Origin: an uncultured Nannocystaceae bacterium
GTDB lineage: Bacteria; Myxococcota_A; Bradymonadia; UBA7976; UBA1532
Direction of reading: 5' to 3'
Assembly: GCA_964384025.1 (NCBI GenBank)
Contig: CAYLJJ010000006.1
Coordinates: forward strand, 4,492 to 68,491
Length of the DNA: 64,000 nt
The notes under the pieces were generated by a model, which did not search any database, was not told the origin of the DNA, and saw only the letters and a list, made by a program, of their open reading frames with translations. The position numbers were made by a program, and so were the translations under genes. Numbering within the stretch: position 1 is the stretch's first letter; every line of letters starts with the position of its first letter. This document shows positions 6,856-62,200 of the stretch, piece after piece.

Positions 6856-7545
6856 ATGAAACTTACAGTGCTCTACCAAGATGAGTCGATCATCGCCATC
6901 CACAAGCCCTCAGGTCTGCTTGTCCACCGCAATGAGCATGCTCCCCACGCGGCTACCGTCCTCCAAAGTTTGCGGGATCAGATCGGCCAGCGCCTCTATC
7001 CAGTACATCGCCTGGATCGCCCCTGCTCTGGGCTCCTGCTCTTAGCTCTCAACTCCAAGACAGCCAGCGCCTTGGGGGCACAGCTTCGAGAGCGCAAGAT
7101 CATCAAGAGTTATCTGGCCTGGGTTCGGGGCTGGCCTCCCGACGAGGGGGAGATTCAGCGCCCACTCAGGGGGCGTCCCGCCTCTACCCGCTTTAAGACC
7201 CAACTCAGGGTGGAGCTGCCTGAGCCGGTAGGTCGTCACCCCAGCGCCCGTTATGCTCTTCTTAAACTGTGGCCCAAGAGCGGACGGCGGCATCAGCTCC
7301 GGCGTCATCTCGCGGGCCTCGCGTATCCCATCTTGGGAGACACCAGCCATGGAGATGGCCGCCACAACCGCTTCTTTAGAGGCCGCTTTGGCCTCAACCG
7401 TCTGATGCTTCACGCCCTTGAGTTAAGCTTTGAGCAGCCTCAGAGCGGAGAAATACTGAACTTAGAAGCTCCCGTTGATGGGGTCTGGCGGCGGGTTCGA
7501 GCTGAATGTCAGCCCTGGATTCAGGATCTCTTAGAGGAGATCTGA
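6856..7545 (+). CDS. RluA-family pseudouridine synthase (TruC-like)
   Basis: IAIHKPSGLLVH and catalytic HRLDRPCSGLLLLA motif. ATG at 6856 verified. Confidence 0.8.
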   Translation: MKLTVLYQDESIIAIHKPSGLLVHRNEHAPHAATVLQSLRDQIGQRLYPVHRLDRPCSGLLLLALNSKTASALGAQLRERKIIKSYLAWVRGWPPDEGEIQRPLRGRPASTRFKTQLRVELPEPVGRHPSARYALLKLWPKSGRRHQLRRHLAGLAYPILGDTSHGDGRHNRFFRGRFGLNRLMLHALELSFEQPQSGEILNLEAPVDGVWRRVRAECQPWIQDLLEEI

Positions 7546-8444
7546 GTCACCCGAAGGGTGTTGCCTTCACGAACCCAAGATTCAACGACAAATTGAGTCG
7601 TGGAGGTCAACTTCGCAGGGAAGCTCTGGAAGGCTTCGATAAGGCCCCTAGAGGAGAGAAAGGAAAGTTCAATGTTCAGTTCGTTTGGAAGCTGATTTGG
7701 GTCTTCTGGTCTGGCTCTGAAAGGCTTATCCTTGATCGGTTTTGCTTTCCGAAGCCGCGTTCTCGTAGTCTGCCAAATCTTCCATGCTTGACCGGCTGAA
7801 TGACACACGATGCTAAAGCGCGCAGGGGGTTCTACTACTCTGGTTTTTGCCGGTGGGGCGATAGAAGGCTTGAGCTCTTGCATTTTCACCGGTTCTTGAG
7901 GTGGGGCCTTTAACAATCTCTCTCGAGCGACGCGGATCGCATGAAGCTTACGACCAAATCCTGGCCGCGCAGCTTGGCCTCGGCGAGCCTGATGCCTCGC
8001 TCCTCCTCTATGCCCCTGATGCCTCGCTCCTCCTCTATGCCCCTGATGCTTCGCCCCTCCTCTATGCCCCTGATGCCTCGTTCCTCCTCTATGCCCCTGA
8101 TGTTGCGGCCTCGCTCGAGGGAGGTTGCCGATCTTTTGATGGTAGATCACAAGGCGGCGCAGCCACCCCAACTCCAAGCTGAGCTGACGGCCGGTGATAT
8201 CAGGGTCTTTATAGAGGCGGTTCTCTAACCAGACACCTACCTCTGTCAGAGCTGCTCTCTCGTTCTCTCGGTTCGCAAAGGCAGAGCCAAACATCTTGAT
8301 CAGCAGCTCAAGGGCAGCGATGGGATCATCAAGGTTACGTTTGATCTGGGTGAGCGCTTCGCTGAGGTAATGTGCATGGTTCTTCGTCGCCAGATGACTG
8401 GAGACCCCCAGCAGCTCTCGGTGAGTTGAGCTGTCCAGATGCAT
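7521..8444 (-). CDS. Terminal gene of the type III-like operon. Hypothetical protein with helical N-terminus and four HQGHRGG(A/T)(R/K) tandem repeats. The track ORF extends to 8528, but the ATG at 8444 sits 1 nt after the upstream stop.
   Basis: Minus strand reads ...TAA a ATG CAT CTG GAC (stop at 8448..8446, ATG at 8444..8442). A 27-nt in-frame tandem repeat encodes HQGHRGGxR four times. Confidence 0.5.
   Translation of the reverse strand: MHLDSSTHRELLGVSSHLATKNHAHYLSEALTQIKRNLDDPIAALELLIKMFGSAFANRENERAALTEVGVWLENRLYKDPDITGRQLSLELGWLRRLVIYHQKIGNLPRARPQHQGHRGGTRHQGHRGGAKHQGHRGGARHQGHRGGARHQARRGQAARPGFGRKLHAIRVARERLLKAPPQEPVKMQELKPSIAPPAKTRVVEPPARFSIVCHSAGQAWKIWQTTRTRLRKAKPIKDKPFRARPEDPNQLPNELNIELSFLSSRGLIEAFQSFPAKLTSTTQFVVESWVREGNTLRVTQISSKRS
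7988..8110. repeat. 27-nt in-frame tandem repeat (about 4.5 copies) inside CDS 7521..8444
   Basis: Repeated unit gatgcctcgctcctcctctatgcccct visible on the + strand. No spacers, so not CRISPR. Confidence 0.8.
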
Positions 8445-8445
8445 A

Positions 8446-9423
8446 TTACCAGCCCCCGATTTTGTGGATTTGAAGGAGCTTTTCTTCACCTGCTTTGTGA
8501 TAATCCGGCGAACCGGTGAAAGCAACACGCCAAGCTAGAAGGTCAAGAGCAGCCTGACGCCGAGCGCTGTCTTTCAGGTTTATCGTGGTTCGAGATGGTT
8601 TGATGCGTCCAAAACCCAGCGGTTTGCCTGCTCCTACCTTTAGACTGCTCCCCGGTTTGACGCCCAAGGCTGAGAGCAGCCCTCCAAGCTCAGCCCTGTT
8701 GAAGTTACTGAAGCGCACATAGCCCACGAGCCTTGAACCGATGGGAATCACCTCTACCGGCTGCTTACTCCCCGGGGCGGAGGGCCCTCGCCCTCCATGA
8801 AATTTGCGACCATGGATCTCAGTGAGCGTCAGCTTCTGCCCTGTGTGATTGCTCTCATAGTCGCCGCAGTGGTGTAGACGCGGTCCAAACTGGGCTGGCA
8901 TCTCTTCCAATCCAGCCTGAGCATCAGTCACAAAATCATCGAAGATGACTCGGCTGCGATGACCCATCAACCCAAAGAGAGCGCAAGCGGAGCAGATCCT
9001 GGGTGGACCATTACCCTGAGCACGACAAGCTTTGAAAAGATCTTGGGCTTTGAGTCGTGGGGAGAGTTCAACATCCCAGCGGTTATATGTGTTGGAGGTG
9101 ATTTTTCTCTGACTGCCTCCCATCGGCGCTTCAGGGAGGCAGGAGCAGGTGATCGCCTCATACCGGGCGCGTACCATCCCCTTAAAGCTGGAGCCAGGGA
9201 TGATAAGCTGTTCCCCTCGCCGCATAGCGCTCCGAGCGACCCTTCCATTGATGAGAATCTTGGCGCCAGAGCCAACATGTATAGCTTGCTCTGCGGTGTA
9301 GGTGAGCTGCATACGCCCAAAGAAGTGGCCCTTGCAGCGACGATCAAAGCGAACCTGCTCCCGCTTGGCTCGATTGACCCGAGTCGGTAAAGGCGTAAAA
9401 AGGTAACCTTGCTCAGAAGACAT
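8446..9423 (-). CDS. cas7: Cas7-family RAMP protein (Csm3/Cmr4/Cmr6-like), type III effector subunit
   Basis: IIPGSSFKGMVRA motif, CSACALFG zinc-finger-like motif, C-terminal G-rich loop VGAGKPLGFGRIKP. Start ATG overlaps the upstream stop (TGATG). Confidence 0.75.
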   Translation of the reverse strand: MSSEQGYLFTPLPTRVNRAKREQVRFDRRCKGHFFGRMQLTYTAEQAIHVGSGAKILINGRVARSAMRRGEQLIIPGSSFKGMVRARYEAITCSCLPEAPMGGSQRKITSNTYNRWDVELSPRLKAQDLFKACRAQGNGPPRICSACALFGLMGHRSRVIFDDFVTDAQAGLEEMPAQFGPRLHHCGDYESNHTGQKLTLTEIHGRKFHGGRGPSAPGSKQPVEVIPIGSRLVGYVRFSNFNRAELGGLLSALGVKPGSSLKVGAGKPLGFGRIKPSRTTINLKDSARRQAALDLLAWRVAFTGSPDYHKAGEEKLLQIHKIGGW

Positions 9424-10370
9424 CAGAGCAGCTCCTGGAGGCTCACCTCTGCCCGCCTTAATAGCTCAGCAGCACGCTCCCCCTGGAAGTCAAAGCGCTG
9501 GCCAAAGCCTCGGGTTCGATGCTCCTCGGCCTTAGGTTTAAGCAGATCCACTTCAGGCAGCAGCTTATAGCGTGCAGCTTCATCAGCCTTGATCAGGCGA
9601 GCAACGCCCTGAGGAGAAGAAGCTCTCCCTGACTGCTCAATGACGATCTGCTCCACCTTGGCCCGCACCACCCCAAAACCTCGAGTCTTAGTAGAGCCCA
9701 ACTGAACAAAGCCATCATCGAGATCTTGAAGGGCGATGGCGAGCAAGCCAAGCTGCCAAGCTTGAAAGTTGCTCAGCGCGATATCTCCATAAAAGCTACA
9801 GCCTGTGGGGATCATCTCCAGATCATAGAGCACTCCCCTCCGCACAGAACCCGCTACTCGATCGATCGCGATGCCGTTGCGCACCTCGGTTCGGTTTGCC
9901 TGTAGGTAGTTTTGATCTGGAGCCCTGGCACCAGCCAGGAAGGGGAAAAGGTCACGCACTGAAGCCCGGCCCCGAAGCCCAGTAGAGCCAAAGGTACGAC
10001 AGGCAAGACAGTGCAGAGCGTGGATCTTGCTGGTCTTGGCCTTTAGGTTGGAGTGCTGGTTACATCCCCTTTCATGATCAAGAGGATCACAGGCAGGTTC
10101 ACCCGCGAAGCCTTTGATCCTCTGGCCTCGAAGCATCGCCTCGCCAGCCGAACGAATGACTCCCTTGAAGCTGGAGCCTGGAATATAGACCGTCAGCCCC
10201 TGAAAGTCTGGATCTACAGCCTTGTTGGCGAAGAGCGCATAGCGAGTCCGTACACAGGAGAGATCAGAGCGTGAAGGATCCAAACCTGTATCACCTGCTC
10301 GGATCAGGAGAGGGGCAGCGGTCGTAATTTTCAGCCGGATGCTGGTCCGGTTGAGGCTCTTCTTAAACAT
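9423..10370 (-). CDS. cas7: Cas7-family RAMP protein (paralog of 8446..9423)
   Basis: YIPGSSFKGVIRS, CLACRTFGSTG, RNGIAIDR, LGSTKTRGFGVV. The internal ATG at 10370 shares one nt with the upstream stop (TGATG). The track start at 10427 is GTG. Confidence 0.75.
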   Translation of the reverse strand: MFKKSLNRTSIRLKITTAAPLLIRAGDTGLDPSRSDLSCVRTRYALFANKAVDPDFQGLTVYIPGSSFKGVIRSAGEAMLRGQRIKGFAGEPACDPLDHERGCNQHSNLKAKTSKIHALHCLACRTFGSTGLRGRASVRDLFPFLAGARAPDQNYLQANRTEVRNGIAIDRVAGSVRRGVLYDLEMIPTGCSFYGDIALSNFQAWQLGLLAIALQDLDDGFVQLGSTKTRGFGVVRAKVEQIVIEQSGRASSPQGVARLIKADEAARYKLLPEVDLLKPKAEEHRTRGFGQRFDFQGERAAELLRRAEVSLQELL

Positions 10371-11179
10371 CAGCTCGCTCCCTCCACCATCCGTTGGCGC
10401 AAAGCTTCCATCCAGCGTTCCCGACACTGGGTGAACAGATGGTCTGCATCCTTGGGCAGCTCACCGCCTGTCTCTAATAAACGCTTGGGTTCAAAGTCCG
10501 TCACGGTGTCCCACTCAATGCCAACCCGTCCAAGTCCCCGCGAAGTAAAGCCGCCGATGGCCGTAAACCCCTCGGCGATCTGCTCAAAGCCGATCACCAA
10601 CACTCCAAGCTCCCAATCCTCTAAATTGTCAGCGAAGAGCTCCAAGCCAAAGCCGGTGCCTGCTGAGACGACTTGGAAATCATATTTGTTGGCGCCATAC
10701 ACCTTGCCCAGGTCACGATCGATGGCGACACCATCTCGAAGCTCAATAGGTGGTTTACGAGCACGGCTCTCTAAGCAAAGGGCATCACTGATGCGTACAT
10801 GGCTCGCCACCACTTGACTTCCAAACAATCGACACGCGGTGCAGTGAGCTGCTTGTAGAGCCGCCTCTCGTCCTCCAGACCCATGTTGACCACAGCCCTT
10901 TCCCAAGGGATCGCAAGCCCAGAGTCGATCTACAGCACCCTCACCTGGATCAACCGCTCGGAGCAGAGACTCGATGGTTGAGCGCAAGACCCCCTTGATG
11001 GAGGCCCCAGGCAGAAATGGAAAACCTTGGGCGTCACGTAAGACAGGGAGATCGACTGCGTCAATGTGGCTACCAGCGCCACCCCCGATCCGGAGCCCTG
11101 TATGACAGCGCACCGTAGCGAGCATGCGTACTCGGCGCTTCAGTATATGAAAGTCGTTGATCGATCCATGCCCAGTCAC
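10370..11179 (-). CDS. csm3: Csm3/Cmr4-like Cas7 backbone RAMP protein
   Basis: FLPGASIKGVLRS, CTACRLFGS, RDGVAIDRDLG, IGGFTSRGLGRVGIEW. The GTG start overlaps the upstream TGA (GTGA). Confidence 0.75.
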   Translation of the reverse strand: MTGHGSINDFHILKRRVRMLATVRCHTGLRIGGGAGSHIDAVDLPVLRDAQGFPFLPGASIKGVLRSTIESLLRAVDPGEGAVDRLWACDPLGKGCGQHGSGGREAALQAAHCTACRLFGSQVVASHVRISDALCLESRARKPPIELRDGVAIDRDLGKVYGANKYDFQVVSAGTGFGLELFADNLEDWELGVLVIGFEQIAEGFTAIGGFTSRGLGRVGIEWDTVTDFEPKRLLETGGELPKDADHLFTQCRERWMEALRQRMVEGAS

Positions 11180-13383
11180 GCTGTTCTCCCTGTCCTCTGA
11201 TATCTATTAACCGCGTCCATATAGGTAAATCGCCGTGACATATAGGTTGCATATCTACGCCATAGCTCCATCCTATCTGATTCACCAAAATAGGTTTCGA
11301 CGATCTTCTCAAAAGTCTCGATGGTATTGCTGACCATCTGGAGAGTCCAAGAGGGGCTGCGACGACCACATTGATAGCGCAGGTAGTTGCTCACCTCCTC
11401 ATGGCAGACAGCTTCCTGTGTTACGCCAACCAGCTGCGAGAGCTGACTCTTGCTGAGCTTGCCCTTTATATCCCTCCTCTTAAACGCCTGATCGATAACC
11501 CTCTCAGCAGCCAACACCAACTCTCTGATCCTTCTATCTTCCATATTGTTTTTATCCTTCAAGGGTGCTGCATCAGGCACTGGGTTGCAGAAGGCGGGAT
11601 CGAAGGCCAACACGCGGCCAAAACCCTGAACTGTCCGATCACCTACCCCATCCATCTCTAACTTACTCAAGCGCTCAAGGAGCGGTTCGTTCTCTTTGGT
11701 CCACTTGAAGAGAAAAACCGAGCCTGCCTTCACGCTGCGTTGGAACATGCGCAGACCAGCTCGTTGGTCCCAGCCATTCTCAAGCCCAAAGCGTCGCACC
11801 TTTAAGCAGCAGGCCTCAGGTGCTACTCCCAAAGCCTCAGCCAAGGCAGCAGTGCCATCATCTTCAGCTTCAAGGAGCAGAGGTGTCAGGCAGGTCAGAG
11901 GGACAAGCTGCGCTGCGATTTTGCGTGATGGAAAGCCATCTAAGGTCTCGCGCGCTTGAGCTTCAAACTTGGACCGGCGGCTCTGGAGATCGGGTAGGGC
12001 CCCATCGCGGATGGGGGAGAGCTTGATTCGGCCCCAACCCAAGGAGCGCCCTCGACCCAGAGAGAGTGGCAGCGCCAAGCCCTGAGTAAGGCGATGGCCA
12101 GGGTTGCTCTCCCCCTCCCTTGGCGGCACCCGACGAACACTCCCTACAAAGCGAGTCTCCTCCTGAAGGAGCTGAATCGAGAAGAGCATCTTCTCCTTCG
12201 CCGAGCGTGTTGTTCGGTCACGAGCGATCCGAGTCACGGTACGTGTCTTAACTCCGGTGTGTTGGCCTCGGAGCAGACGGCGGGGTTTTAGGGGAGCACC
12301 ACAGCATCCACACTTCTCAGCCAGGAGACGCTGAGCGCGGACCAGCATCTCTACATCTTGGCCTGCCAACGCGATTGCCAAGCGAGCAAAGAAGTCATCA
12401 ACAGCGAACTCTGAGGGCTTGTGCTTACAGGCGCGGGCGGTCAGCGGCCAAGGGCCGACGACACCATCGATCCCGCTTCCATCACCGCAGAGGTATAGGA
12501 AATCAAAGATCGCGCCTCTCTCAGCATCGACCAGGGTCTGAAAGGCTTGATCTGTATCTGCACTCTCGCCCAAAAGCTCAGCGAGCCCAAAGCCCACCGC
12601 GCCTCGCAGCGCTGCTCCAGGCACTTCGGTACGGGTAGACCGCATGTTATCATCGGAGAGTGGCGTACCGATGTTCGCGGGCCGCTCCAACACAACTTCG
12701 AAATGTTGATGTTCAGCGCTGGGCTCAAACCGAAGCTCTGACGAGGGCTCACAGGGAAAGACGCTCAGCTCAACACGCCCCATACCGCGGCTCTGACCGC
12801 CGCCTATATGAGTTGTGAGGGTCGCTGCAGCCTTTAACAAATCGAACAGCTTTTCTGTGTCACGGATTAAGCGTCCCTCCGCACGGAATCGAAGTTCCTG
12901 TCCAGCGGCAGGCAATAGTGCATTAAACAGGAGACCTTCCTGTGCAGATCGACTGCGACGATCCAGGGAGACCCCATGCCGCTCAACATCTGGTCGAGCT
13001 TCCCCTTCCAGCAAGGCATCACCCAAAATCAAAGCGGAGAGATGACTCGCGCGTTCTCCCCCGACCTCCGCCCTCCCAAACAGCCGACAGGCGTCACAGG
13101 GTTGCTCATCCTCCCCTAAGATACATTCGATATAGGGCTCGTCAGGTTGATGGCTTGCTGAGAGTCCTGTGCCTCGGACACAGGCTCCCTTCCCAGCCGC
13201 TCGAAGCACAGCCTCGAGGTTCTCTCGAAGAGCGCCACGCAGGCTGGTTGCGGGGATCAGCGAGCGCCCATTTTTGTCGCGAGCGTGGGTTTGATCATAA
13301 CCAAGAGGTGTTTTGGAATATCCTCCAATCGCGATGGTGCCCTGCGGGACAACGGCGACCAGATCAAAGAATCGTGTTGCCAT
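11176..13383 (-). CDS. Large multi-RAMP fusion protein (three G-rich loops; Cas5/Cas7-Cas7 fusion with a helical C-terminal tail, possibly a fused small subunit)
   Basis: IPATSLRGALR...CDACRLFG...HIGGGQSRGMGRVEL. Then EVPGAALRGAVGFG...LSLGRGRSLGWGRIKL. Then GDRTVQGFGRVLAF. Then about 130 aa of helical-looking tail. ATG at 13383 lies 5 nt after the upstream stop. Confidence 0.65.
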   Translation of the reverse strand: MATRFFDLVAVVPQGTIAIGGYSKTPLGYDQTHARDKNGRSLIPATSLRGALRENLEAVLRAAGKGACVRGTGLSASHQPDEPYIECILGEDEQPCDACRLFGRAEVGGERASHLSALILGDALLEGEARPDVERHGVSLDRRSRSAQEGLLFNALLPAAGQELRFRAEGRLIRDTEKLFDLLKAAATLTTHIGGGQSRGMGRVELSVFPCEPSSELRFEPSAEHQHFEVVLERPANIGTPLSDDNMRSTRTEVPGAALRGAVGFGLAELLGESADTDQAFQTLVDAERGAIFDFLYLCGDGSGIDGVVGPWPLTARACKHKPSEFAVDDFFARLAIALAGQDVEMLVRAQRLLAEKCGCCGAPLKPRRLLRGQHTGVKTRTVTRIARDRTTRSAKEKMLFSIQLLQEETRFVGSVRRVPPREGESNPGHRLTQGLALPLSLGRGRSLGWGRIKLSPIRDGALPDLQSRRSKFEAQARETLDGFPSRKIAAQLVPLTCLTPLLLEAEDDGTAALAEALGVAPEACCLKVRRFGLENGWDQRAGLRMFQRSVKAGSVFLFKWTKENEPLLERLSKLEMDGVGDRTVQGFGRVLAFDPAFCNPVPDAAPLKDKNNMEDRRIRELVLAAERVIDQAFKRRDIKGKLSKSQLSQLVGVTQEAVCHEEVSNYLRYQCGRRSPSWTLQMVSNTIETFEKIVETYFGESDRMELWRRYATYMSRRFTYMDAVNRYQRTGRTA

Positions 13384-13388
13384 CAGTT

Positions 13389-14903
13389 TCAACTCCCTGC
13401 ACGTTGGGTTTGCTCCTCAATCCGAGCGATCTCCAACTCCGCGTGGGTGGGCAGCGCTCTCTCAAGCCGTCGAGCGTCGGTCCAAGACTCTCCAAAGAAG
13501 CTCTGCCATTTCAGGCTGCGCGCGACCTGATAGCGCAGTTGATTTAAAGCTTCTGCTTGGGTGATCCCTTGCTGTCTCTCATACAGCAGTCGAGCGAGAA
13601 GCGCGCGCTGGCTTGAGGGCACCCCAAGATCAAGGAGGCGTCGGGCTCGTTCGAGCGCCTGGCTCAGCGAGGGTCTCTCTCCGCTGCCTGCGATCTCAAG
13701 TCGATGATCAGCCATGACATTTCCACCCCCCGCGACCAACTCCTCGCCGCTGCGCATAAACGCGAAATCCAGCGCTGAGCGAGCCTTACCTGAACCGCAG
13801 ATCTGCTTAGCGGAGATCTCAAGAGCGTGGGCAAAGCCGATCAGCGCTGAAGCAGGGTAGCTGGCTGGGCCGATGACCAGCCCGATACCGATACCGATGC
13901 CCTCCAAGGCCTCAGCAAGCTTAGGGGGAGGCTGCCAGTGTCTGGATAGATCCTGTGTTCCTTTATGGAGAGCCTGAGCGAGGCGCTCCATGCGCTCAAA
14001 GACCCCTTCAGGCTGTACAAAGAGCCGAATATCATCTCCACCGACAACAGGCGCGACAAAATCCCCTTTGTCCAGATCGCAGGTCGCGGCGTCGAGAGCG
14101 TGCTTAAACAGGAGACTCACCGCTTGGCTGGCGAGGGCTCGATCTTCTATCGTCGGTAGAGAGGCAAAAAAGCGTCCCATCTCGTTTCCATCACCAGAGA
14201 TCACCGCAATTTTGTTGAGTTGAGATGAGAGTTCAGAGAGCGTGGCCTTGCCTCCAGCTTGACTCCTCGCCTCAGTTTGTCCCTGCTCAAGGATCGGCAA
14301 GCAGGTCTTACAGACCTCATATCGCTCGCCAGCGTGGCAAAAGGATCGTGTGGTGTTCCTTGGAGCAGCTTTACAAGCGACACAGCGCTGATTGGGTAGG
14401 ACGACCTTGGAGAGCAGCTGAGATCGAGGTGGCATCGCCTCATCTTTGGCGATGCTCATTCTTGCCCGAAGAGCTGTGAGCGCTCGCGCTTCAGCCTCCT
14501 GCCCTGCTTCTCCACTACAGGGAACCGCCTCAACCGCTAGACTCTCACCGCCTGTCAGCTTCGCGTATCTCTGGGGTAAGCTCTTGAGGAGCCTGGAGCG
14601 ATCTTGGGCAGAGATCCAAAATAGACCTCTGCCACCCCCATTAAAGATGGCACCCCTTTCCTCTTGTGCCTCTTTATCAAATTTCTTAACGATATCGCTG
14701 GCCCCACGCAGATAGGGCAACATTCGGCTTCGTGTTACAAAGCTTTGAATTCCATTTGCATCATATTGGAGCAGCCACCCATCTGCTCCAACTGCAGCCC
14801 GTGCTTTGGCAACAGATCTCTGGATATTTCCAGGATTAAACCCATCTAGATAGCTCAAGAACCCTCCTCCATGCTTGCCACAACCAAGAATAGAATGGAC
14901 CAA
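13389..14903 (-). CDS. cas10: Cas10-like large subunit lacking an HD domain (Palm1 GIQxF, treble-clef Zn finger, Palm2 with GDGN and GGDD)
   Basis: LLQYDANGIQSFV (Csm1-type GIQxF), CVACK...CHAGERYEVCKTC, IAVISGDGNEMGRFF, VVGGDDIRLFV. Protein is only 504 aa and the start is TTG in the track. Confidence 0.7.
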   Translation of the reverse strand: MVHSILGCGKHGGGFLSYLDGFNPGNIQRSVAKARAAVGADGWLLQYDANGIQSFVTRSRMLPYLRGASDIVKKFDKEAQEERGAIFNGGGRGLFWISAQDRSRLLKSLPQRYAKLTGGESLAVEAVPCSGEAGQEAEARALTALRARMSIAKDEAMPPRSQLLSKVVLPNQRCVACKAAPRNTTRSFCHAGERYEVCKTCLPILEQGQTEARSQAGGKATLSELSSQLNKIAVISGDGNEMGRFFASLPTIEDRALASQAVSLLFKHALDAATCDLDKGDFVAPVVGGDDIRLFVQPEGVFERMERLAQALHKGTQDLSRHWQPPPKLAEALEGIGIGIGLVIGPASYPASALIGFAHALEISAKQICGSGKARSALDFAFMRSGEELVAGGGNVMADHRLEIAGSGERPSLSQALERARRLLDLGVPSSQRALLARLLYERQQGITQAEALNQLRYQVARSLKWQSFFGESWTDARRLERALPTHAELEIARIEEQTQRAGS

Positions 14904-15244
14904 ATCCTACCATCTTCAATTACATAACATTCATATCAACACCAAATCTAAAGTGATGATATGACCCCAATCGGAGTATTCAAAATACCAGAAAACCTAA
15001 TTCAGAAAGCCTGCAATTTGCTCCGATTGTCAGGATGACAGACACCCCTACATTCCTCAACCACCATCTGAAAAAAATGGAAAGTCGATACTCTCCGACC
15101 AACAATCTAAGATCCTGAGGAGGAACTGTGGGCTATGCTGAGTAGGGCACTTTAGGGTTTGAGTCCAAACAACAGGGTTTCTTTTTTCATTTTCAGCTTG
15201 ACGGAGGAGCAAAATTTCAATAAACAGATCCAACGCTGTCAACG
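14904..15244 (-). promoter_or_regulatory. AT-rich 340-nt non-coding leader and presumed promoter region of the type III-like operon
   Basis: Locally low GC relative to the flanks, no ORF, and directly upstream of the first coupled gene. No sigma-54 or ECF consensus found by eye. Confidence 0.3.
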
Positions 15245-15316
15245 GGCTGTTGGCTCAATGGTAGAGCAGCGGACTTTTAATCCGACGGTTCTGGGTTCGA
15301 GCCCCAGGCGGCCCAT
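15245..15316 (+). tRNA. tRNA-Lys (anticodon TTT)
   Basis: Acceptor GGGCTGT/GCGGCCC, D-arm GCTCAATGGTAGAGC, anticodon loop CTTTTAA, T-arm CTGGGTTCGAGCCCCAG. Confidence 0.9.
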
Positions 15317-15320
15317 TTGG

Positions 15321-15395
15321 TCCCCATCGTCTAGTCAGGTCCAGGACACCGGCCTTTCAAGCCGGCAACACGGGTTCAAAGCCCGTTGGGGATAC
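15321..15395 (+). tRNA. tRNA-Glu (anticodon TTC)
   Basis: Near-identical architecture to E. coli tRNA-Glu: GTCCCCATCGTCTAG...CCGGCCTTTCAAGCCGG...GGGTTCAAAGCCCGTTGGGGATA. Confidence 0.9.
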
Positions 15396-15403
15396 AAAAA
15401 AAG

Positions 15404-15438
15404 CCTCAGAGTTTAAGCTCTGAGGCTTTTTCTTTTTG
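15404..15438. terminator. Bidirectional rho-independent terminator (A-run, GC hairpin, T-run)
   Basis: aaaaaaaGCCTCAGAGtttaaGCTCTGAGGCtttttcttttt. Serves the tRNA pair on + and the convergent lipoprotein gene on -. Confidence 0.7.
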
Positions 15439-22825: not shown

Positions 22826-23275
22826 ATGAAAGCAGTCCACGTAATCGCAGCAGTTGGCGCGGTTTTGATCATCGCGATAACAGCTTGGTACTTTTATATG
22901 CAATATTCCGAGGTGGATACTGAGCCTCAGGCCAAGACCCGAGGACTCCAGATCAACGGGCGAGTGCTTAAGTTGGATCATCGGCTTAAGCAGCGGCAGG
23001 CGGAGATCAGTCGCAATGCAAAAGCTCAGCTTCAACCTAAGGCTGGAGCGAAAGATCAGAAGGTTGCAGTTCCCGAAGTCAAAGCTCCTCAGCCCCCTGT
23101 AAAGGCTGAGGTCAAGGACAAGGCGCCTCAGCCCCCTGTAAAGGCTGAGGGCAAGGGCAAGACGCCTCAGCCCCCTGTAAAGGCTGAGGGCAAGGGCAAG
23201 ACGCCTCAGCCCCCTGTAAAGGCTGAGGGCAAGACCCCACCCAAGGTTAAACCTGAGCCCGCCCCCAAGCCCTAA
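22826..23275 (+). CDS. Membrane-anchored protein with a tandem PQPPVKAEGKGKT repeat tail
   Basis: N-terminal TM helix AVHVIAAVGAVLIIAITAWYFY. 39-nt tandem repeats at 23081..23240. Confidence 0.5.
   Translation: MKAVHVIAAVGAVLIIAITAWYFYMQYSEVDTEPQAKTRGLQINGRVLKLDHRLKQRQAEISRNAKAQLQPKAGAKDQKVAVPEVKAPQPPVKAEVKDKAPQPPVKAEGKGKTPQPPVKAEGKGKTPQPPVKAEGKTPPKVKPEPAPKP
23081..23240. repeat. 39-nt in-frame tandem repeats (about 4 copies) encoding (A/T)PQPPVKAEGKGK
   Basis: Directly visible: aaggctgagggcaagggcaagacgcctcagccccctgta repeated. Confidence 0.8.
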
Positions 23276-35353: not shown

Positions 35354-35977
35354 ATGAAGCCTGTAAAACAGAAAGCTCCAGAATATCCACAGCTCACCAC
35401 TTTCCATTTAGAGCGCCGAGAACTGCTGACTCTCTTCGCCAAGGGAGCTGCTTTCCTTGGGGTCTCTTCCAGTCTGGGCTGTGTCCTCCAACCTGAAGAG
35501 AGCGACGCGGGCGGCGCTGGGCCAGGGGTAGATGGGGGAGGGGTTCCTCCTCATGAGCCTCCCATCAGCGGCGAAGTTGATAGCCATCAGTATCCCGATA
35601 CAGGTGAGCCTCCCATGGGCGGCGGCATCGAGCCCTATCCATATCCAGACGCAGGTGGAGAACCTGAGCATCAATATCCAGATATGGGTGAGCCTCCCAT
35701 CGCGGGAGCAGAGCCTCTGCCTCTCGACGCGGGCGGCACTGATCCCTGCGAACTTCCTGAGCCAGGTGAGCCTCCTATGGCAGGGGATATCGCTCCCTAT
35801 GAGCCCCCCGATGCGGGTGAGCCTCCTATGGCAGGGGATATCGCTCCCTATGAGCCCCCCGATGCGGGTGAGCCTCCTGTAGCGGGCGGCGTTATCGATC
35901 CCCATGTATATCCCGACGCTGGCCTTCCTGACGCAGGTGAGCCCCCGATAGCGGGTGGAGATATGCCTTCCGAGTAA
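35354..35977 (+). CDS. Tat-signal secreted Pro/Tyr/Asp-rich tandem-repeat protein
   Basis: RRELLTLFAKGAAFLGV Tat-like leader. Repeats HQYPD, YPYPDAG, YEPPDAGEPPMAGDIAP (two copies), VYPDAG. Confidence 0.5.
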   Translation: MKPVKQKAPEYPQLTTFHLERRELLTLFAKGAAFLGVSSSLGCVLQPEESDAGGAGPGVDGGGVPPHEPPISGEVDSHQYPDTGEPPMGGGIEPYPYPDAGGEPEHQYPDMGEPPIAGAEPLPLDAGGTDPCELPEPGEPPMAGDIAPYEPPDAGEPPMAGDIAPYEPPDAGEPPVAGGVIDPHVYPDAGLPDAGEPPIAGGDMPSE

Positions 35978-59212: not shown

Positions 59213-62200
59213 TTGGCTCAAAGGAGATCGAGCATGTGGCGACGCCTTGGACTTCTGCTCCTCCTCTCTTTTTCTGCTTGTGACGGCAGCAGGGATGAAG
59301 GAGACACGGCGCTACCCACACCGGATTGTTGTGAGCAAGAGCCAGGGGCTTGCGCGGATGGCCTGGACAATGATGAGAATGGCCTCATCGATCTCGATGA
59401 TCCTGGCTGTGAGGGACCCGATGATCCAGAGGAGGCCTCCAAGCAGTGCACCAACAGCCTGGACGATGATGGAGATGGGCGTATCGATCTGAGGGATCCA
59501 GGCTGTAGCAATGCTGAAGATGATGATGAGTCTGACGAGCCCCTCGCGGCCTGCTCTGATGGCTTGGACAACGACGGGGATGAGCGTATCGATTTCCCTG
59601 ATGATCCGGGCTGTGGCTCGCTCATGGATGGAGATGAGCTGGATGAAACCACAGCTCAACGCGCCTGCGCCGATGGCTTGGATAATGATGGAGATCACCT
59701 CATCGATCTGGAGGACCCTGGCTGTGCTCATGAGATGAGCCCCCGAGAGCTGGATCCAGATCCTCTCCCCCAATGCTCCAATCAGGAGGATGATGATGAG
59801 GATGGTCTGATCGACTTTCCTCTGGAGCCAGGCTGTGTCTCAGCGGGAGATGATGATGAGAGAAACCCTGAGCAGGCTCCCCGCTGCGCCAACGGCTTAG
59901 ATGATGATCAAGATGGCCGCGCAGATTACCCCGTAGATCCAGGCTGTCTCGCTGTAGGCGATGACTCTGAGCTGGATCCAGAGCAGCCCCCAGCCTGCGC
60001 CGATGGCTTGGATAATGATCGGGATGGCCGCTTTGACTATCCCGAAGATCGAGGATGTCGCAGCGCCTCGGATGGAGGAGAGCGGGTCGCTTGTGGGGAC
60101 CTTGATGTGGTGGAGTTGCCGGGCTCGCTGGTTCGAGGAGATACAAGAGGAGGGCGCTTTGAAGCTGCTGGGAGCTGTGGAGGCGCGGGTTCGGCAGAGA
60201 TCGTCTATCTCTACCATCTGAGTGAGAGCGTAGAGGCGCTCAGCTTTCGCAGTCGAGGTGAGCTGGAGAGCACCCTCTACCTCCGTGAACGCTGCGCCGC
60301 TCCTCAAAGCGAGCTTGCCTGTCATCAAGGGGCCCTGGAGGGCAGAGAGGAGAATCAGATCAGCCTGAGCTGGCCTCCCCCTGGAGACTACTTTCTCTTC
60401 GTAGATGGAAGCTCTGGGCGTGGGGGCGCCTTTGAGCTGGAGCTGGAGCTGCTCTCTCTGGCGGAGTGCCGCAACCATCACGATGATGATGAGGATGGTC
60501 TCATTGACTACCCCTTTGATCCAGGCTGTGAGTCGCATGAGGATCGCAGCGAGTCCGACCCTGAGATCCCCCCTCTCTGCGCTGATGGTGAGGACAACGA
60601 CGCGGATGGCTTGACCGACTTTCCTTTTGATCAGGGCTGTCAGGACGCTGCGGATCAAGATGAGCTGGATCTCTGTGGTCAGGGGGTTCCTGTTCGCAGC
60701 ATCGATCTGGGGGGCTTTGAGGGGCGGGTGGAGCCTCGCAGCAGCAGCCTGCGGGGAAGCTGTGGCCGCAACAATCAGGGGGAGCATATCTTCCACTACA
60801 TCAACCCCTTTAACGCCCGCCTGAGCTTCGCTCTAGAAGGAGCCAGCAGCGAACTGAGCCTCTATCTGCGCTCCAGCTGCTTGCTCAACAGCAGTGAGCT
60901 GGGTTGTCGGCTGATCATGCCAGGGTTGATGAGCAGCTTGCAGGTTGAGCGCGTGGCGCCCGGAGACTATTTCATCATCATCGATCAGCTTCAAGGCGCC
61001 CAGGAGTTGAAGCTCTCTATCCACTCTGAGCGTCTGCCTCCAGGCTGCCGGGACGGGATCGATAACGATGAAGATGGCTTTATCGATGCTGATGACCCGG
61101 GCTGCCGTGAGCCAGATGATGAGGATGAGCGAGATGAGGGAGTGTCCGTCTGTAACAACGGCTTGGATGATGACGAAGATGGGCTCATCGACTTCCCGAT
61201 GGATCCCGGCTGTATCTGTCGAGGGGCGCTCGATGAGAGCAACCCTGTGGTCTCTCCCAGCTGCCTTAACGGCCTGGATGATGATGATGATGGTCTGGTG
61301 GACTATCCCGAAGATGAGGGCTGCTATGGCGCGGGGGATCTGGATGAGGAGAGCGAGGGGCGACCTCAATGTAGCAACCGCATCGACGATGATGAGGATG
61401 ATCTCCTGGACTACCCCTTTGATCCCGGCTGCGCCGCCCCAGGGGGGCTGAGTGAGGCTGATCCTGAGCTTCTACCGGAGTGCGCCGATGGCCTGGATAA
61501 TGATCGGGATGGCCTCCTGGATTTTCCCTTTGAGCCCGGTTGCCGCTCGGCAGGGGATGACTCAGAGCATGATCCTCAGCCCCCCGCGCGCTGTAGCAAT
61601 GATCGAGATGATGATGAAGATGGGATCATCGACTTCCCCAGGGATCCAGGCTGTAGTCACGCAGGAGATGGAGATGAAGAGGATCCCGCCTTTCAGCCTC
61701 AGTGTGGCAACGGCCTAGATGATGATCGCAATGGCCGTATTGACTTCCCTGATGATCCAGGCTGCAGTTTTGCGGCTGATGCCCGTGAAGATGGCCTGGG
61801 TGCTCCCCCAAGACGCTGCGCTGATGGAGTGGACAATGATGACGATGGCAGCATCGATCTGGCTGATCCAGGCTGCGCCACGCCTCGGGATGACGATGAA
61901 GAGGATCTGGAGATCGAGCCCTACTGCGCGGATGGGATCGACAATGATGAAGATGGTCAGGTGGACTGGCCCGAGGATGAGGGTTGCACCGCGCGAGGAG
62001 ATCTCTGTGAAGAGCGGGGCTATGGTTTTTGTGAGTCGGGTTGTTTGGATATCCAAGCAGATCCAGAGAACTGTGGCCGATGTGAGCACCGCTGCAATCC
62101 AGGCGTAGAGTGCATTGATGGCTTCTGTGGTGGGCTCTTTGTGTTTGAAGGGATTCGCCAGGACATAGATGAAGAACTCTTGGGAGGCTGGCGACGCTGC

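Follow-up and report, generated by a model that had tools for sequence, protein, structure and literature searches.

A subtype III-D CRISPR-Cas effector operon without array, cas6 or sensor genes in cis in an uncultured Nannocystaceae bacterium

How can a type III CRISPR-Cas effector operon serve its host when no CRISPR array, cas6 or sensor gene lies near it? This question is raised by a 64-kb stretch of DNA (hereafter, the window; assembly GCA_964384025.1, contig CAYLJJ010000006.1, positions 4,492 to 68,491) from an uncultured Nannocystaceae bacterium, in which six consecutive, tightly coupled and intact open reading frames (ORFs) occupy positions 7521-14903 of the minus strand. An earlier note, made from the letters of the window, described them as a type III CRISPR-Cas effector operon of unusual and perhaps novel composition. 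Hidden Markov model profiles, structures and synteny together identify the composition as an effector module of subtype III-D. We consider it probable, although far from certain, that the operon encodes every protein of a type III-D interference complex, most likely using CRISPR RNA (crRNA), Cas6 and effectors that are encoded elsewhere.

Genes of the operon

The first gene, cas10 (13389..14858, minus strand, as are all of the genes below), encodes a protein of 489 amino acids (aa) according to the gene caller, with a Palm1 domain (DANGIQ), a four-cysteine zinc ribbon, a Palm2 domain (SGDGN ... GGDD) and a C-terminal helical domain. It matched the Cas10 palm2 family PF22335 with 33.9 bits (cut-off 27) and the PADLOC Cas10 profiles at 1e-24. 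In an alignment of 23 members, I52, Q53, C174, C177, C198, C201, D238 and the GGDD at 288-291 were invariant, and the window protein keeps all of them. The best match of the family profile in the PDB was 8s9t_C, the Cas10 of a III-Dv complex (8e-13). These profiles, motifs and structural matches identify the palm-containing large subunit expected of type III. No HD family was matched, no N-terminal His-Asp motif was conserved among the 23 aligned members, and the protein begins at Palm1, so that the description of an HD-less Cas10 was correct; a Cas10 without a functional HD nuclease is typical of, but not universal in, III-D. Among 1.84 billion cluster representatives searched exhaustively, 51 relatives scored below 1e-30, nearly all of them 460-520 aa long; therefore, the small HD-less format is a trait of the family.

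The second gene (11176..13383; 735 aa from ATG 13383, with residue numbers given here for the 738-aa ORF) is a cas7-cas5-cas11 fusion. Its Cas7 domain (12760..13329, aa 22-211) matched PADLOC Csm3 (7e-22) and TIGR02581 (1.7e-13), with PF03787 (RAMPs) found at aa 28-208; the Asp at the catalytic position of this domain is not conserved across the family in the N-terminal alignment. The Cas5 domain, probably of Csx10 type and with two G-rich loops (11608..12702, aa 231-595), matched PADLOC Cas5_IIId (3e-23), Cmr3 profiles (6e-8) and TIGR02674 Csx10 (6.9e-21; 74.9 bits, under the curated cut-off of 177.3), and homologues of the protein bear the Csx10 annotation at the Joint Genome Institute (JGI). 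The C-terminal domain (11200..11502, aa 631-731) is a Csm2-like Cas11 small subunit, matching PADLOC Csm2 profiles at 1.8e-8, 6.2e-8 (CAS-III-D effector_SS) and 7e-6; a Pfam search of this segment gave no match. The earlier note had seen three RAMP G-rich loops in the protein, which are indeed present but do not mark three RAMPs of unknown type; one of the loops is from the Cas7 domain and the other two are from the two-lobed Cas5. It had also recognized no stand-alone Cas11 in the window, but Cas11 is present: the small subunit is fused to the C-terminus of this protein (PADLOC Csm2, 2e-8) and is apparently found a second time, by predicted fold, in the sixth gene. In Sorangium and many other relatives, the Cas11 segment is a separate gene of about 170 aa; thus, fusion and fission of Cas11 vary within the family. 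The only solved chain with the architecture of the whole protein is 8s9t_A, described as Cas7-Cas5-Cas11, which matched weakly in the single-sequence search and at 2.6e-8 with the family profile. The best PDB match of that profile was 9wxh_D, a 1235-aa RAMP chain of the TIGR03986 family, which we take to be the Cas7x3 of III-D2. In all, 86 homologues of the fusion protein were found, and an identical 735-aa protein is encoded on a 119-kb contig.

The next three genes encode separate Cas7 proteins, in agreement with the earlier note, which had recognized a Csm3-like Cas7 and two further paralogues. Gene 3 (csx7; 10370..11179, 269 aa) is Csm3-like, with 160.1 bits against TIGR02581 Csx7 (curated cut-off 108) and 1.4e-48 against PADLOC Csm3. 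Its Asp at the position equivalent to D33 of Csm3 (VDLPV) is invariant in 20 relatives. Gene 4 (9423..10370, 315 aa from ATG 10370) is a second Cas7 of Csx7 type, with 113 bits against the same profile and cut-off; the Asp at the equivalent position (SDLSCV) is found in 15 of the 18 true orthologues, and the relatives of this protein begin MFKKSxNRA. Gene 5 (8446..9423, 325 aa) is TIGR03986-like (4.6e-21, under the cut-off) and also matched the Cas7-11e profile (4e-14), chains of Cas7-11 in the PDB (1.6e-8) and the III-D Cas7 chain 8bmw_J; these matches relate it to a III-D Cas7 and to the Cas7 domain at the C-terminal end of Cas7-11. The alignment shows no Asp at its catalytic position. Because genes 3 and 4 keep the Asp, gene 5 does not have it and the family does not conserve it in the Cas7 part of gene 2, two RNA cleavage sites are predicted. 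With PF03787 matching genes 2-5 at 1e-10 to 1e-27 and two proteins above the curated cut-off for Csx7, the Cas5 and the several Cas7 RAMPs of a type III complex are all found in the operon.

The sixth gene (7521..8444, 307 aa) encodes an N-domain (aa 1-106) and a small C-domain (aa ~205-307), joined by a basic linker that is disordered. Profile and sequence searches of Pfam, NCBIfam, PADLOC and the sequences of the PDB gave no match for this protein, which is conserved at the same operon position in about 30 related loci. A single-sequence search for homologues returned the protein itself, probably owing to the low-complexity linker, and an alignment-based search gave nine proteins. The AlphaFold2 model made with the nine homologues has a confident five-helix N-domain (predicted local distance difference test, pLDDT, 85-93), which appears to have the fold of the Cas11 small subunit, the predicted fold matching chains of 8bmw. 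The C-domain of the model is weakly similar to an oligonucleotide-binding (OB) fold and possibly binds RNA. Two other identities were considered and rejected. That the N-domain and the fused Cas11 of gene 2 are paralogues had no sequence support (hhalign profile-profile comparison, probability 0.1); for Csx19 (all1473), which is frequent but not universal in III-D, sequence profiles were empty at this locus and neither fold search gave a Csx19 chain. A putative Cas11-fold protein with an extra domain stands in the place of Csx19, and, having no Pfam, NCBIfam or PADLOC profile, it would be missed by annotation pipelines.

The linker of gene 6 contains an in-frame tandem repeat of 27 nt (7988..8102, minus strand; 4.3 copies encoding HQGHRGGAR; Tandem Repeats Finder (TRF) score 209, 94% matches), which, according to the alignment, is an insertion unique to the window protein and absent from its relatives. 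An ENA assembly from this population gives the protein 298 aa, with one repeat unit fewer than here; the difference is either real variation in copy number or an assembly collapse. In every relative the linker is disordered, and its length varies. In two myxobacterial loci (L012, 14472-15392; L020, 13708-15357), the gene 6 homologue is truncated to the Cas11-like domain of about 115-126 aa.

Likely gene starts were set by comparison with relatives and with public gene calls. That of cas10 is TTG at 14858, with GGAGGAGGG just before it, and the ORF could reach 14903; that of gene 2 is ATG 13383, with an alternative TTG at 13392; those of genes 4 and 6 are at 10370 and 8444, respectively. The junction of cas10 and gene 2 is TTGA, or a 5-nt gap followed by ATG, that of genes 2 and 3 is GTGA, and the following two are TGATG each. 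Thus the tight coupling of the six genes is real, and the first four junctions had been described correctly; the last, between genes 5 and 6, reads TAAtATG and not TAAaATG, a trivial slip. The motifs that had been listed are also directly seen in the translations: (I/L)PG(S/A)S(F/I)KG in genes 3, 4 and 5, CxxC..FG in genes 2-5, three G-rich loops in gene 2 and one each in genes 3, 4 and 5, and GIQ and GGDD in gene 1. The guanine-plus-cytosine content of the operon (0.55-0.59) is the same as that of the window, as had been stated for the host sequence. Upstream of cas10, there is a low-confidence candidate for a sigma-70-like promoter (14956..14983, minus strand; TTGAAT-16-TATCAT, 9/12 matches); sites of this kind are no more numerous in the region than expected from shuffling.

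Relatives and known type III systems

Scans of genome and metagenome collections found the same gene order in 43 loci, mostly of Myxococcota (Sorangium, Nannocystis, Paraliomyxa, Polyangiaceae and Kofleriaceae), with a few in Desulforhopalus, Eisenbacteria and Acidobacteriota. In all, about 45 of the loci fetched (labelled L003-L030 and L034-L050) have the six genes in this order. Among about 30 non-redundant loci with enough flanking sequence, about two-thirds have a CRISPR array with 36-nt repeats near the operon, typically at a distance of 0.1-5 kb; the repeats often end in ATTGAAGC, GTTGAAGC or ATTGAGAC. The neighbouring genes in relatives include those for Cas6, Cas1, Cas2, a fusion of Cas6, reverse transcriptase and Cas1, Csx3, Card1 and an APE2256-type CARF protein, as well as TIR-SAVED, CHAT-SAVED, SAVED-phosphoesterase, a SIR2-SAVED-GT4 fusion and SMODS, and most relatives carry Cas6, Cas1/Cas2 and sensors of cyclic oligoadenylate (cOA), among which are Csx3, Card1 and the TIR-SAVED and CHAT-SAVED proteins. 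The arrays, the Cas6, Cas1 and Cas2 genes and the cOA sensors beside most relatives argue strongly that the family is a true CRISPR-Cas system and signals through cOA. The closest relatives of the window operon (L027, L003/L028 and L035; 42-45% identity) keep Cas6 and a SAVED or CARF protein, which points to a secondary, lineage-specific loss as the origin of the stripped state of the window copy rather than to an old array-less clade. Loci L012 and L020 also have no array or known sensor within 10 kb; L030, L003 and L040 have no array within 10 kb, yet sensors or Cas6 are present.

Some relatives have features of their own. In L027 (16925-17200), the array is down to repeat-spacer-repeat; the first repeat ends GTTGAAAC, and the second, which is degenerate, leads into an ORF that bears the YADD motif of reverse transcriptases and is followed by an integrase, so that the array looks like one interrupted by the insertion of a mobile element. 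Genes resembling those of the cyclic oligonucleotide-based antiphage signalling system (CBASS), namely for a SMODS nucleotidyltransferase, a ThiF/E1-like protein and SAVED-CHAT, adjoin III-D operons in L027 (3500-8175, with SMODS and ThiF beside SAVED-CHAT) and L005 (16004-16840, with SMODS), suggesting that CBASS and type III signalling share or exchange sensor-effectors. In L017 (4009-6999), from a metagenome-assembled genome of Eisenbacteria, a single 996-aa ORF comprising Cas6, reverse transcriptase and Cas1 lies upstream of the III-D operon. In L039 (8137-11751), a 1204-aa fusion of SIR2, SAVED and GT4 ('glycosyltransferase in conflict systems') directly follows the gene 6 homologue and is a candidate for an unusual cOA-activated effector.

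The operon is of neither subtype III-A nor III-B, as the earlier note had recognized. However, its composition is not novel, since it is that of III-D and recurs in the relatives described above. An HD-less Cas10 together with Csx10, Csx7 and TIGR03986 RAMPs is the norm for III-D (PMC11026444), and III-D has already been recorded in myxobacteria (PMC11237760). Published definitions distinguish III-D1 with separate Cas7 subunits, III-Dv with Cas7-Cas5-Cas11, Cas7-2x, Csx19 and an insertion-bearing Cas7, and III-D2 with Cas7-5 and Cas7x3 (PMC13294483, PMC11026444); by these definitions, the clade of the window operon lies between III-D1 and III-Dv. The supposedly unusual gene set is therefore a III-D arrangement widespread in Myxococcota, and its Cas7-Cas5-Cas11 fusion with three separate Cas7 proteins documents a further stage in the series of fusions that leads to Cas7-11.

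The family is closest to the solved III-Dv complex of Synechocystis sp. PCC 6803 (PDB 8s9t; PMC11026444), which has no repeated subunits and one crRNA, and whose Cas10, although HD-less, makes cOA upon target binding (PMC11026444). Both have an HD-less Cas10 with GGDD, the Cas7-Cas5-Cas11 fusion as the second gene, and four Cas7 domains in total, with zinc-finger-bearing Cas7 domains among them. In contrast to the Cas7-2x fusion of Synechocystis, however, the next two Cas7 domains are separate genes here, with stop codons between genes 3, 4 and 5; the last Cas7 has no large insertion domain; and the Cas11-fold and OB-like protein predicted from gene 6 occupies the last position, where no Csx19 was detected. 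The sequence similarity is low (tblastn gave no match to a plasmid). Furthermore, Synechocystis carries Cas6-2a and Csm6/Csx1 in cis, together with an array and adaptation genes, and the window locus has none of these.

The III-D1 complex of Saccharolobus solfataricus (SsoCsm, PDB 8bmw; PMC9945777) likewise has several stand-alone Cas7 paralogues and a stand-alone small subunit, and its chains were matched by the sequence of gene 5, the family profile of gene 2 and the predicted fold of gene 6. It differs from the window operon in that Cas5 and Cas11 are not fused and its 829-aa Cas10 matches our family profile weakly (4e-5); Csx19, too, is described as typical of III-D1. With III-D2 (Cas10, Cas7-5, Cas7x3 and CorA; PMC13294483), the operon shares a Cas7-Cas5 fusion, an HD-less Cas10 and related Cas7 domains, whereas the genes that define III-D2 were not found in the window or in the relatives, and the window locus has no Cas7x3 fusion, CorA or toxin-antitoxin module. 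The partners of the operon in relatives are instead SAVED or CARF sensors, and these imply signalling by cOA and not by S-adenosyl methionine-AMP.

According to the 2025 classification, Cas6 is apparently used in trans by most type III systems, and arrays are missing from many type III loci and subtypes (PMC12669027). Like many III-B, III-C and III-F loci and III-G, which borrow crRNA and Cas6 in trans (PMC12669027), the window locus has its effector module unaccompanied by an array, Cas6 or adaptation genes. These are other subtypes, however; most loci of the window III-D family have an adjoining array, and the window locus also has no sensor-effector. Because type III loci commonly stand without array and cas6, the window locus, one more of the array-less kind, is for the most part an ordinary find.

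Source of crRNA and functional state

The sequence examined for missing components was 74.7 kb, consisting of the window and, on its source contig, 5.6 kb to the left and 5 kb to the right; it extends about 13 kb downstream of gene 6 and about 54 kb upstream of cas10. The window showed zero mismatches to the 124.5-kb JGI metagenome contig Ga0115649_1000349 over 16,077 bases compared. Scans by TRF, repeat families and k-mers found no CRISPR array in the window, as the earlier note had stated, nor was there one in the 5.6 kb and 5 kb beyond its ends; that note had reasoned that a standard array and cas6 immediately outside the window would make the locus a conventional split one. The consensus repeats of 10 relatives and the L027 repeat matched the window at the level of shuffled controls, giving no sign of relic repeats, and a scan of metagenome contigs with the L027 repeat gave no matches. 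No Cas6, Cas1, Cas2, CARF or SAVED protein is among the called genes of the 74.7 kb, again in line with what had been noted for the window, and the window ORFs include no homologue of the SAVED, CHAT, TIR and Cas6 proteins of the relatives. The array and Cas6 are thus not available in cis, whereas they are in most relatives with enough flanking sequence.

We compared the window proteins with their relatives at positions conserved in at least 90% of the latter. The residues matched at 51/55 such positions in Cas10, 98/110 in the fusion, 40/41 in gene 3, 52/53 in gene 4, 28/28 in gene 5 and 22/22 in gene 6. These rates (89-100%) are inside the range of the compared family members, array-linked loci included. 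The GGDD, the zinc ribbon and the Asp residues of the Cas7 proteins of genes 3 and 4 are all kept. Because the ORFs are intact and coupled, the catalytic residues are kept and the conserved positions are matched at these rates, the window copy looks functional.

From the work on III-Dv (PMC11026444) and general knowledge of type III systems, we infer by analogy the stoichiometry, cleavage sites, messenger and supply in trans of the complex. One copy each of Cas10, Cas7-Cas5-Cas11, the three distinct Cas7 proteins and the Cas11-like protein of gene 6 would assemble on one crRNA. Cas5 and Cas10 would hold the 8-nt tag derived from the repeat, the four Cas7 domains would display the guide along the crRNA, and the C-terminal domain of Cas10 would form the minor filament with the two Cas11 domains. 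The proteins of genes 3 and 4 would use their conserved Asp to cleave a complementary transcript in two places, and a non-self 3' flank would activate the GGDD palm of Cas10 to produce cOA, which would switch on SAVED or CARF effectors such as those neighbouring the operon in relatives (Card1, TIR, a CHAT protease and others). For III-Dv, it has been shown that the subunits are present once each on one crRNA, that Cas7 Asp residues cleave RNA and that the target activates cOA synthesis. In the window lineage, the array, Cas6, adaptation genes and sensor-effector may have been lost or may never have been in cis, and crRNA, Cas6 and effectors would be supplied from elsewhere in the genome. Production of crRNAs elsewhere had been one suggestion of the earlier note, and it is the best-supported reading.

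Several observations weigh against this reading. No array, Cas6, CARF or SAVED gene is found anywhere in the 74.7 kb that the search covered around the operon, and supply in trans is presumed. The Cas11 assignment of gene 6 comes from a predicted structure, the profile-profile comparison with the fused Cas11 giving it no support. The scores of gene 2 against Csx10 and of gene 5 against TIGR03986 are under the curated NCBIfam cut-offs. Moreover, the nearest relative is only about 45% identical, too distant for a measure of recent selective constraint on the window copy.

The alternative that survives best, unlikely in our estimation but to be taken seriously, is that the operon is an evolutionary remnant, a III-D module stranded after deletion of the array, Cas6 and sensor-effector, no longer defending the host and decaying. 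The components missing across the examined sequence adjoin the operon in most relatives, the truncated gene 6 homologues in L012 and L020, which also have no array or known sensor, could mark erosion, and gene 6 of the window bears an unstable in-frame repeat insertion. However, decay is not what the genes themselves suggest: the starts of the six intact ORFs are coupled, every catalytic and invariant residue is still there, the conserved positions are kept as well as in the compared family, array-linked loci included, and the repeat of gene 6 falls in a linker that varies in length in every relative.

We give little credence to a split but conventional locus, in which an array and cas6 would lie on the same chromosome just past the examined sequence. 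The distances of 0.1-5 kb between operon and array in relatives, the loci L030, L003 and L040 with sensors or Cas6 and no array within 10 kb, and the fact that the examined part is 74.7 kb of a 124.5-kb source contig are in its favour. However, housekeeping genes flank the operon on both sides over the roughly 13 kb and 54 kb examined, and anything farther would be supply in trans in practice, so that this alternative merges with the reading we prefer, that of crRNA, Cas6 and effectors encoded elsewhere.

Slightly less credible still is repurposing, which the earlier note had offered as a non-CRISPR role and which no evidence supports: a III-D-derived complex without arrays would use a non-CRISPR cellular RNA for regulation, or would serve as an RNA-sensing cOA generator for CBASS-type SAVED effectors elsewhere. 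Compatible with it are the intact and conserved module despite the absence of array, Cas6 and effector in cis, the housekeeping chromosomal setting beside tRNA genes, the mixing of relatives with CBASS-like parts (SMODS and ThiF by SAVED-CHAT in L027, SMODS in L005) and the extra, weakly OB-like and possibly RNA-binding domain predicted in gene 6. On the other hand, the family taken together is linked to arrays, and loci without one are scattered instead of grouping as a clade, with Cas6 and sensors retained in the closest relatives. Near the operon, neither a structured RNA nor a candidate gene for a guide RNA was found, and no family-specific change separates the window copy from array-linked ones. 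Least probable of all, we consider, is an intact III-D complex selected, in a genome without array, Cas6 and cOA-responsive effector, as an array-independent RNA-guided or RNA-sensing device, for which gene 6 might capture non-CRISPR RNA. If the whole genome were truly without arrays and sensors, the locus would be a natural test case for a type III effector on its own.

Surroundings of the operon

The neighbours of the operon on both sides are housekeeping genes (DnaB, MutL and ribosomal proteins), and a gene for an RluA-type pseudouridine synthase converges on gene 6. Genes for tRNA-Lys(ttt) and tRNA-Glu(ttc) (15244-15395) lie on the opposite strand, 340 nt upstream of cas10, and are followed by a strong terminator-like hairpin (15398-15431). 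Genes for tRNA are common integration sites; no integrase or direct repeats were found. A search of 6.5-16.5 kb with Rfam at permissive thresholds detected the two tRNAs only. Concerning mobile carriage, no relatives of the operon were found in viral contigs or PLSDB plasmids.

Repeats of other kinds occur elsewhere in the window. Cys/Asp-rich coding repeats (CxDGxDNDxDGxID, with a weak match to Cu-binding MopE) are found at 356-468 and 59348-61966 in large secreted-looking proteins. In-frame tandem coding repeats are present at 23087-23233 (39 nt, 3.8 copies, 97% matches) and at 35554-35895, where the units are of 51 nt and Pro/Glu-rich.

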